From the UHGV virus genome UHGV-0231970: a stretch of DNA of 21,313 nucleotides; one strand, 5' to 3'. Of this stretch, positions 12,634 to 16,032 are shown piece after piece. The notes beneath the pieces are model-generated. The model saw only the letters and a list, made by a program, of their open reading frames with translations. It had not been told where the DNA came from and did not search any database. Position 1 is the first letter of the stretch. Every line of letters starts with the position of its first letter. Made by a program: the position numbers and the translations under genes. Source of the DNA: a virus.

Positions 12634-15600
12634 ATGGGTAAAGGCAGCAGTAAGGGGCATACTCCGCGCGAAGCGAAGGACAACCTGAAGTCCACGCAGT
12701 TGCTGAGTGTGATCGATGCCATCAGCGAAGGGCCGGTTGAAGGTCCGGTGGATGGATTAAAAAGCGTGCTGCTGAACAGTACGCCAGTGCTGGACAGTGA
12801 GGGGAATACCAATATCTCCGGCGTCACGGTGGTGTTCCGGGCCGGTGAGCAGGAGCAGACACCGCCGGAGGGATTTGAATCCTCCGGCTCCGAGACGGTG
12901 CTGGGTACGGAAGTGAAATACGACACGCCGATCACCCGGACCATCACGTCGGCAAACATTGACCGACTGCGTTTTACCTTCGGCGTGCAGGCACTGGTGG
13001 AAACCACCTCAAAGGGGGACCGGAATCCGTCGGAAGTCCGCCTGCTGGTTCAGATACAACGTAACGGTGGCTGGGTGACGGAAAAAGACATCACCATTAA
13101 AGGCAAAACCACCTCACAGTATCTGGCCTCGGTGGTGGTGGGTAACCTGCCGCCGCGCCCGTTCAATATCCGGATGCGCAGGATGACGCCGGACAGCACC
13201 ACAGACCAGCTGCAGAACAAAACGCTCTGGTCGTCATACACCGAAATCATCGATGTGAAACAGTGCTACCCGAACACGGCACTGGTCGGCGTACAGGTGG
13301 ATTCGGAGCAGTTCGGCAGCCAGCAGGTGAGCCGTAATTATCATCTTCGCGGGCGCATTCTGCAGGTGCCGTCGAACTATAACCCGCAGACGCGGCAATA
13401 CAGCGGTATCTGGGACGGAACGTTAAAACCGGCATACAGCAACAACATGGCCTGGTGTCTGTGGGATATGCTGACCCATCCGCGCTACGGCATGGGGAAA
13501 CGTCTTGGTGCGGCGGATGTGGATAAATGGGCGCTGTATGTCATCGGCCAGAATTGCGACCAGTCGGTGCCGGACGGCTTTGGCGGCACGGAGCCGCGCA
13601 TCACCTGTAACGCTTACCTGACCACACAGCGCAAGGCGTGGGATGTGCTCAGTGATTTCTGCTCGGCGATGCGCTGTATGCCGGTATGGAACGGGCAGAC
13701 GCTGACGTTCGTGCAGGACCGACAGTCGGATAAGGTGTGGACCTATAACCGCAGTAATGTGGTGATGCCGGATGATGGCGCGCCGTTCCGCTACAGCTTC
13801 AGCGCCCTGAAGGACCGCCATAATGCCGTTGAGGTGAACTGGATTGACCCGAACAACGGCTGGGAGACGGCGACAGAGCTTGTTGAAGATACGCAGGCCA
13901 TTGCCCGTTACGGTCGTAATGTCACGAAGATGGATGCCTTTGGTTGTACCAGTCGGGGGCAGGCACACCGCGCCGGGCTGTGGCTGATTAAAACGGAACT
14001 GCTGGAAACGCAGACCGTGGATTTCAGCGTGGGCGCAGAAGGGCTTCGCCATGTGCCGGGCGATGTTATTGAAATCTGCGATGATGACTATGCCGGTATC
14101 CGCACCGGCGGGCGCGTGCTGGCGGTAAACAGCCAGACCCGGACGCTGACGCTCGACCGTGAAATCACGCTGCCATCTTCCGGCACCACGCTGATAAGCC
14201 TGGTTGACGGGCAGGGGAGTCCGGTCAGCGTGGAGGTTCAGTCCGTCACCGACGGCGTGAAGGTGAAAGTGAGCCGTGTTCCTGACGGCGTTGCTGAATA
14301 CAGCGTATGGGGGCTGAAGCTGCCGACGTTGCGCCAGCGCCTGTTCCGCTGCGTGAGTATCCGTGAGAACGACGACGGCACGTATGCCATCACCGCCGTG
14401 CAGCATGTACCGGAAAAAGAGGCCATCGTGGATAACGGGGCGCACTTTGACGGCGACCAGAGCGGCACGGTAAATGGTGTCACGCCGCCAGCGGTGCAGC
14501 ACCTGACTGCCGAAGTCACCGCAGACAGCGGGGAGTATCAGGTACTGGCCCGCTGGGACACGCCGAAGGTGGTGAAGGGCGTGAGCTTCCTGCTTCGCCT
14601 GACCGTGGCAGCGGATGACGGCAGTGAGCGGCTGGTCAGCACGGCCCGGACGACGGAAACCACATACCGCTTCAGGCAACTGGCGCTGGGGCGGTACACG
14701 CTGACGGTCCGGGCGGTAAATGCGTGGGGACAGCAGGGCGATCCGGCATCGGTATCGTTCCGGATTGCCGCACCGGCAGCGCCGTCGCGGATTGAGCTGA
14801 CGCCGGGCTATTTTCAGATAACCGCAACGCCGCATCTTGCCGTTTATGATCCGACGGTACAGTTTGAGTTCTGGTTCTCGGAAAAGCGGATTACCGATAT
14901 CAGGCAGGTTGAAACCACAGCCCGCTATCTTGGCACGGGGCTGTACTGGATAGCCGCCAGTATCAATATCAAACCGGGCCATGATTATTATTTTTACGTT
15001 CGCAGTGTGAACACCGTTGGCAAATCGGCATTTGTGGAGGCCGTCGGTCGGGCGAGCGATGATGCGGAAGGTTACCTGGATTTTTTCAAAGGCAAGATAA
15101 CCGAATCCCATCTCGGCAAGGAGCTGCTGGAAAAAGTCGAGCTGACGGAGGATAACGCCAGCAGACTGGAGGAGTTTTCGAAAGAGTGGAAGGACGCCAG
15201 TGATAAGTGGAATGCCATGTGGGCTGTCAAAATTGAGCAGACCAAAGACGGCAAACATTATGTCGCGGGTATTGGCCTCAGCATGGAGGACACGGAGGAA
15301 GGCAAACTGAGCCAGTTTCTGGTTGCCGCTAACCGTATCGCGTTTATTGACCCGGCAAACGGGAATGAAACGCCGATGTTTGTGGCGCAGGGCAACCAGA
15401 TATTCATGAATGACGTGTTCCTGAAACGCCTGACGGCTCCCACCATTACCAGCGGTGGAAATCCGCCGGCATTTTCCCTGACACCGGACGGAAAGCTGAC
15501 CGCTAAAAATGCGGATATCAGCGGTAATGTGAATGCAAATTCAGGGACGCTCAACAATGTCACGATTAATGAAAACTGTCAGATTAAGGGGAAACTGTCA

Positions 15601-16032
15601 GCCAATCAGATTGAAGGCGATATTGTCAAAACGGTCAGCAAGTCTTTCCCCCGCACGAACAGTTATGCCAGTGGCACCATCACGGTAAGAATCAGTGATG
15701 ATCAGAAATTTGACCGGCAGGTCATGATACCGCCAGTGTTATTCCGCGGTGGTAAGCATGAGAATTTCAACAGTAATAACCAACAGTCATACTGGTATTC
15801 AACCTGCCGGTTAAGAGTGACCCGCAATGGTCAGGAGATTTTTAATCAGTCCACGACGGATGCTCAGGGCGTTTTTTCCTCAGTTATAGATATGCCTGCC
15901 GGACAGGGGACGCTGACACTGACATTCACCGTATCTTCATCAGGAGCGAATAACTGGACACCAACAACCAGTATCAGCGATCTGCTGGTTGTGGTGATGA
16001 AAAAATCCACAGCAGGTATCAGTATCAGCTGA
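12634..16032 (+). CDS. J: Tail tip attachment / central tail fibre (host specificity) protein gpJ
   Basis: ORF 12634..16032, 1132 aa; N-terminal ~980 residues match lambda J from recall ([37 protein letters not shown]...). C-terminal ~150 residues diverge (see findings). Confidence 0.95.

Follow-up and report, generated by a model that had tools for sequence, protein, structure and literature searches.

The locus described here raises the question of which outer-membrane receptor is recognized by a tail tip protein that follows bacteriophage lambda J over most of its length and then departs from it. The protein is the product of gene J in UHGV virus genome UHGV-0231970, from which a stretch of 21,313 nucleotides (nt), hereafter the window, was analyzed. 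The original prediction, made from the sequence without database searches, placed a divergent and AT-richer C-terminal region of J at 15550-16032 and proposed that, because this part of lambda J determines LamB recognition, the phage may use another receptor. According to our comparisons, the feature is an already characterized OmpC-binding allele of the J receptor-binding domain (RBD), known as 'A8', on an otherwise lambda-like J. The parts of the gene, in nt and amino acids (aa), are as follows.

12634..16032, plus strand: gene J, tip attachment protein or central tail fibre, 1132 aa plus stop (open reading frame (ORF) list, translation, Pfam, same position as lambda J).
12634..15525, plus strand: lambda-type J body, aa 1-964, comprising the hub, the FNIII domains, the helical shaft and the larger part of the beta-prism fibre (nt identity to lambda 88-100% per 90-nt bin; domain names from PMC11101478).
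15526..16029, plus strand: exchanged C-terminal module, aa 965-1132 (identity to A8 over aa 966-1132; break against lambda at about 15568-15590; GC 46.4%).
15655..16029, plus strand: Ig-like RBD proper, aa 1008-1132 (Pfam PF12421, Ig_GpJ_C, E = 4.8e-36).

The departure from lambda was seen both in the DNA and in the protein. When the two J genes were aligned and divided into 90-nt bins, the identity was 88-100% up to 15513, 74% at 15514-15603 and 44-58% from 15604 to the stop codon, that is, over the last ~440 nt; blastn against lambda gave no alignment for J beyond 15590. Over its full length J shares 90% of its residues with lambda J (BLASTP), with nearly all differences located after aa 964, and the identity over the last 168 aa is 45.9% (tblastn; over 167 aa). 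Three loops differ from lambda in length: 4 aa are missing at 1008-1011, 5 aa are added at about 1045-1051 and 1 aa is missing near 1104. By this identity and these indels, the segment of aa 965-1132 falls outside the LamB-binding allele of the lambda RBD with its loops L1-L4. The predicted departure was thus borne out: the peptide quoted for it was found exactly, and the C-terminal 160 residues are not essentially identical to lambda J. The proposed start at 15550 was correct to within about 10 codons, but the sharp break is located at about aa 979-985 (nt 15568-15590). The stretch preceding the departure, described as following lambda, is indeed lambda-type but already contains two substitutions, N965 and N974 (S in lambda). 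The difference in base composition was also confirmed, with a GC content of 46.4% in 15550-16032 versus 58.1% in upstream J, and a GC content at third codon positions of 53% versus 70%; the C-terminus of lambda's own J has 54.2% GC.

Brödel et al. (Nature 2024, PMC11338833) took two J tips from natural prophages, one of them A8, and grafted them on lambda J at residue 964. When J aa 941-1132 was compared with PDB sequences, the chain 9wca_J, 'A8 gpJ 713', was matched with E = 4e-123 and 191/192 identical residues; lambda J chains (8XCJ, 8IYK) matched the tip at E about 1e-54 only. The identity is 100% over aa 966-1132 and thus throughout the RBD, and the sole difference over the 192 aa, N965 here versus S in A8, is in a position above the RBD. 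The A8 DNA printed in the supplement of Brödel et al. aligned to 15460-16032 of the window with 543 of 563 ungapped columns identical; this DNA was machine-read, with dropped letters and likely misreads, and the 20 apparent mismatches are unreliable. For the exact identity we relied on the PDB chain and not on the printed DNA. The two proteins share the OmpC receptor and a lambda-type body, and the engineered graft was joined at lambda aa 964, where the natural break is also located here. However, A8 gpJ is an engineered graft on true lambda J, whereas the combination in the window is natural, with N965 where both A8 and lambda have S and with a body about 3% off lambda in nt.

The receptor of this domain has been addressed in two published studies and in one deposited structure. 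Both tips grafted by Brödel et al. switched the receptor from LamB to OmpC (PMC11338833). In MG1655 ΔlamB ΔompC cells supplied with MG1655 OmpC, A8 particles gave 95% GFP+ cells at a multiplicity of infection (MOI) of 84, in comparison to 1.9% at MOI 135 for wild-type lambda J (PMC11338833). Across OmpC variants the A8 delivery reached at least 90% at the highest MOI for 19 of 23, was weaker for G55, G56 and G67, and was almost nil for G40 (7% at MOI 226) (PMC11338833); the delivery is thus dependent on the OmpC variant. A PDB search with K-12 OmpC retrieved the entry 9WCB, in which A8 gpJ713 is accompanied by three chains named 'Outer membrane porin C'. The titles of 9WCA and 9WCB, both with the release date 2026-01-28, read 'Closed state of A8 gpJ 713 central tail fiber' and, for 9WCB, 'Open state ... 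with OmpC G17 from E. coli EDL933'. The second study concerns phi330, a long-tailed Stx2a phage whose tip is identical to the window tip at 187 of 191 residues. Among 54 Keio outer-membrane mutants, phi330 failed to lyse only ΔompC, and its plaques were restored on reinsertion of ompC (PMC12502783).

Since a domain identical or 98% identical to the one described here binds or needs OmpC, the phage of the window very probably adsorbs through OmpC, as far as this can be judged from the sequence. The published results support the proposal of a receptor other than LamB, and OmpC was among the candidate receptors that had been named. Several points weigh against this interpretation. The OmpC data come from the A8 chimera and from phi330 and not from the phage of the window; the chimera carries a lambda J body, to which the context here is a close but not an exact match (N965, about 3% of nt). 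A literature search for 9WCA and 9WCB found no paper, and the use made of these entries here is based on their titles and chain contents. The tip was modelled with AlphaFold2 from its single sequence at low quality only (pLDDT 55.6), and the model adds no structural evidence. Furthermore, an additional receptor beside OmpC may exist as far as the sequence goes. The receptor, the functional swap and the solved complex are already public, and the locus opens no new question in this respect.

The likeness to A8 and phi330 extends to the loops that are predicted to contact the receptor. In the AlphaFold3 model of phi330, the hairpin E953-S962 was directed into the OmpC barrel and the hairpin A1015-P1020 was placed on the barrel rim (PMC12502783). 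Their counterparts in the window J, identical to those of phi330, are listed below together with a third loop.

15655..15666, plus strand: short loop T1008-Y1011 (TNSY), 4 aa shorter than in lambda, with the only two RBD differences from phi330 (TSTY).
15760..15789, plus strand: loop E1043-S1052, counterpart of the phi330 hairpin E953-S962 (offset 90), 5 aa longer than the lambda loop.
15946..15963, plus strand: loop A1105-P1110 (ANNWTP), counterpart of the phi330 hairpin A1015-P1020 (offset 90).

The lambda J protein has been described as a series of hub domains, two FNIII domains, a helical shaft, a beta-prism fibre and an Ig-like RBD (Ge and Wang, PMC11101478). Four bottom loops of the lambda RBD enter LamB, upon which the base of the trimer spreads, the motion travels up and the tail tip opens (PMC11101478). 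By analogy, the J trimer of the window would be placed at the tail tip, where its C-terminal Ig-like domains would offer their bottom loops to a trimeric porin. Their remodelling in comparison to lambda (4 aa fewer at 1008-1011, 5 aa more at 1042-1054, a different sequence at 1104-1110) would direct the docking to OmpC and not to LamB, and the binding of OmpC would open the base of the RBD trimer. As with lambda and LamB, the motion could then pass up the beta-prism fibre and the helical shaft, the tail tip would open and the DNA would be ejected. The pair of A8 structures, 'closed' and 'open with OmpC', implies the same triggering logic with OmpC; that the signal is transmitted as in lambda is what we infer for the phage of the window.

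The rest of the protein and the genes upstream of it are of the lambda type. The window from 1 to 15590 and lambda NC_001416 from 2870 to 18462 formed one blastn alignment with 96.75% DNA identity, and the 21.3 kb correspond to the late region of a Lambdavirus-type phage or prophage, with ORFs matching B, C/Nu3, D, E, FI, FII, Z, U, V, G, T, H, M, L, K, I and J. The window J has the same length as lambda J (1132 aa), and its six Pfam matches were all above the cut-offs: PF13550, PF24801, PF24421, PF24489, PF09327 and PF12421, with the names Phage-tail_3, FNIII-A_GpJ, Ig_J, Ig_J_second, Phage_Tail_Tip and Ig_GpJ_C. The domain series of a lambda-type J (hub, FNIII/Ig, tail-tip fibre, C-terminal Ig-like RBD) is complete. 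J also closes the tail cluster in the order H-M-L-K-I-J-lom-stf, collinear with lambda, with lom and stf next to it. Across the entire window the closest sequenced phages were PhiR30_1, Turner, 2H10 and Chlobot (~96-97%); a search of the literature for the PhiR phages by name turned up no paper of relevance. On the minus strand, one ORF of at least 60 aa was found at 15258-15563, which overlaps the interval from 15550 by 14 nt, and the long antisense ORFs farther upstream in J had no support.

Three other explanations of the tip have to be considered. It could still use LamB, the divergence being neutral drift or variation of the immune type. The fold and the Pfam family are indeed those of the lambda RBD, and the motifs of the beta-strand core, FDRQ, DMPAG and KK..GIS, are conserved with it. 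However, the indels are located in the loops, lambda J fitted with the identical tip functions in ΔlamB cells and according to the OmpC variant provided, loss of ompC alone in a lamB+ background suffices to block phi330 (tip 98% identical), and the solved complex is that with OmpC. This explanation is hardly credible and has effectively been refuted already. It is harder to dismiss the idea that the tip binds more than the OmpC of E. coli, for example OmpK36 of Klebsiella, OmpC of Salmonella, or OmpF. A8 particles equipped with an appropriate side fibre were able to deliver DNA to K. pneumoniae ST258 (PMC11338833), although the text consulted does not name the Klebsiella receptor. A record named Salmonella phage SPF_0923 contains a 99.4% identical tip, and most of the 23 E. 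coli OmpC variants were tolerated by A8 (PMC11338833). On the other hand, the variant G40 was barely used, and ΔompC alone abolished the phi330 plaques in K-12, where OmpF, PhoE and LamB were no substitute (PMC12502783). We therefore regard a multi-porin specificity as possible but rather unlikely.

The last of these explanations is that J belongs to a defective prophage or to a chimeric assembly, so that the tip would have no current function. This could agree with the state of the stf locus 4 kb downstream, where a perfect 78-nt inverted repeat is the centre of a rearrangement and tfa is truncated, and with the finding that no complete E. coli genome matched the window at better than 98%. 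Nevertheless, J is an intact ORF, the genes from B to J are collinear with lambda without breaks, and lambda PaPa is fully infective without side fibres (PMC11338833). The J 3' end is carried with at least 97% identity by the isolated phages PhiR30_1, Turner, 2H10 and Chlobot, and the first three of them also share most of the late region of the window. A tip without function is improbable.

Among the other known J tips, that of phi330 (vB_EcoS_phi330, PV189401, Pankowvirus) is OmpC-dependent like A8, but its J differs in the body (77% nt identity), in the annotated length (1042 aa, 'tail fiber protein') and in the genome backbone. The homology between phi330 and the window J begins about 355 nt upstream of the annotated 1042-aa ORF, inside a separate hypothetical ORF (PV189401 4128-4546), and a frameshift may divide the start of the phi330 J, or its annotation may be wrong. 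The lambda RBD (8XCJ, 8XCK, 8IYK) belongs to the same Ig_GpJ_C family, with the same position and trimeric Ig-like architecture and probably the same triggering mechanism, but it differs in the receptor (LamB), in the sequence (46% identity over the last 168 aa) and by indels in three loops. Another natural prophage OmpC tip of this family is 1A2 gpJ (PMC11338833), which we compared as the VT1-Sakai type, an assignment that rests on a machine-read DNA listing with errors. With 62.8% identity over the last 168 aa (~63-64%) and 70% over 192 aa, the window tip is not the 1A2/VT1-Sakai allele. The two tips also differ in preference: 1A2 was limited to EDL933-like OmpC variants and did not use MG1655 OmpC, which A8 uses (PMC11338833). 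The central tail fibre of phage 434, likened here by its description, was reported as another lambdoid J-type tip targeting OmpC; the RBDs of 434, lambda and phi330 share 35-40% pairwise identity and their loops are not conserved (PMC12502783).

The distribution of similarity along the window suggests how the tip was acquired. The similarity to lambda collapses at about 15590 and returns, at ~85-86%, only inside lom and at the start of stf. In the comparison with phi330 the J body is 77% identical in nt, but the segment 15241-17000 is 92% identical. The segment 15241-15590 is thus conserved versus both lambda and phi330, and is therefore a likely crossover zone; it coincides with the site where the engineers made their graft, described by them as the 'last stretch of identity' (PMC11338833). 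The tip allele would have been acquired by homologous recombination in this conserved fibre segment just upstream, in an exchange of the kind usual in the mosaicism among lambdoid prophages, and the lower GC content would mark the different history of the block. The phage records could be divided into classes by their identity to the window tip: at least 98% (Stx1a and Stx2a phages, 2H10, YYZ-2008), ~83% (4A7, 1W), ~78% (Stx1_14040), ~63% (VT1-Sakai and 2G7b, the type closest to the 1A2 chimera), ~48% (mEp460, Tritos, 2851) and ~46% (lambda, HK630, DE3). The J tip moves as an independent module, as its combination with different lom alleles shows (see below), and its exchange in the window is an ordinary mosaic swap of a known OmpC-type RBD, which is already known.

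To see how common this tip is, we searched 5,426 complete E. coli genomes with its 443 nt (15590-16032). The identity was at least 99% in 1,027 records and 95-99% in 465, which gives about 1,490 records with the tip allele at 95% nt identity or more; up to 10 matching places were present per genome (all identity bands). Lambda's own tip (query lambda locus 15662-16104) was found in 98 of the 5,426 genomes, those listed being laboratory lysogens (DE3 strains, a K-12 derivative); megablast would miss diverged LamB-type alleles, and this rarity applies to lambda's own allele only. The ratio of the OmpC-type allele to lambda's own allele is thus about 15 to 1 in complete E. coli genomes, and the textbook lambda receptor is atypical. 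The host range of the phage of the window is expected to track the expression and the variant of OmpC and not the maltose regulon, and the same tip was chosen by Eligo Bioscience for DNA delivery in the gut for that reason. It is conceivable, if doubtful, that the tip is a broad enterobacterial generalist using most E. coli OmpC variants and possibly the Klebsiella and Salmonella orthologues. This would explain its dominance (~27% of complete genomes), with the LamB tip of lambda as a rare outlier mainly in laboratory lysogens; in the element of the window, with its broken side-fibre locus, adsorption would then rest on the tip alone.

Two features were located directly downstream of J.

16050..16079, plus strand: terminator-like hairpin (16050-16069) with a T-run, 18 nt after the J stop codon (consensus scan).
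16099..16698, plus strand: lom, full-length Ail/Lom outer-membrane protein of 199 aa (Pfam Ail_Lom, E = 1.8e-121).

In mEp460 the corresponding position carries an annotated rho-independent terminator. The first 67 aa of the window lom are 42% identical to lambda lom (206 aa); most of the initial ~470 nt of the gene gave no nt alignment with lambda, apart from one 59-nt match at 85%. We considered whether lom was co-inherited with the tip as one module and rejected this: the N-terminus of the window lom is 96% identical to that of mEp460, whose tip is a different one (only 57% over 192 aa), and Stx1_14040 contradicts the co-inheritance as well, with a related tip and a different lom.

The stf ORF follows at 16757-20140 and encodes an Stf of 1127 aa. 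The perfect 78-nt inverted repeat has its arms at 19954-20031 and 20320-20397, coding for the His-rich GAHTHS repeats of Stf. Between the arms are 288 nt whose reverse complement corresponds to the 3' end of a lambda-type stf together with the first 70 codons of tfa. The plus-strand homology to PhiR30_1, Turner and ev099 ends at 20028-20031, which is 82 nt before the stf stop codon of PhiR30_1, and no tfa follows on the plus strand after 20031. In the present orientation the last 36 aa of Stf are antisense read-through, and neither orientation yields a full-length tfa. The rearrangement could be a real inversion/deletion or an assembly chimera, and the side fibres probably do not function. From about 20396 to 21313 the window is 100% identical to several vB_EcoS-xxxR phages and encodes, on the minus strand at 20522-21313, a protein of 263 aa with a ParB_N domain. 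A TET-associated glycosyltransferase-like gene (PF20691), also on the minus strand, is represented by only its first ~50 aa and is cut at the repeat arm at 20397; at the equivalent place Chlobot contains a glycosyltransferase gene of 720 nt.

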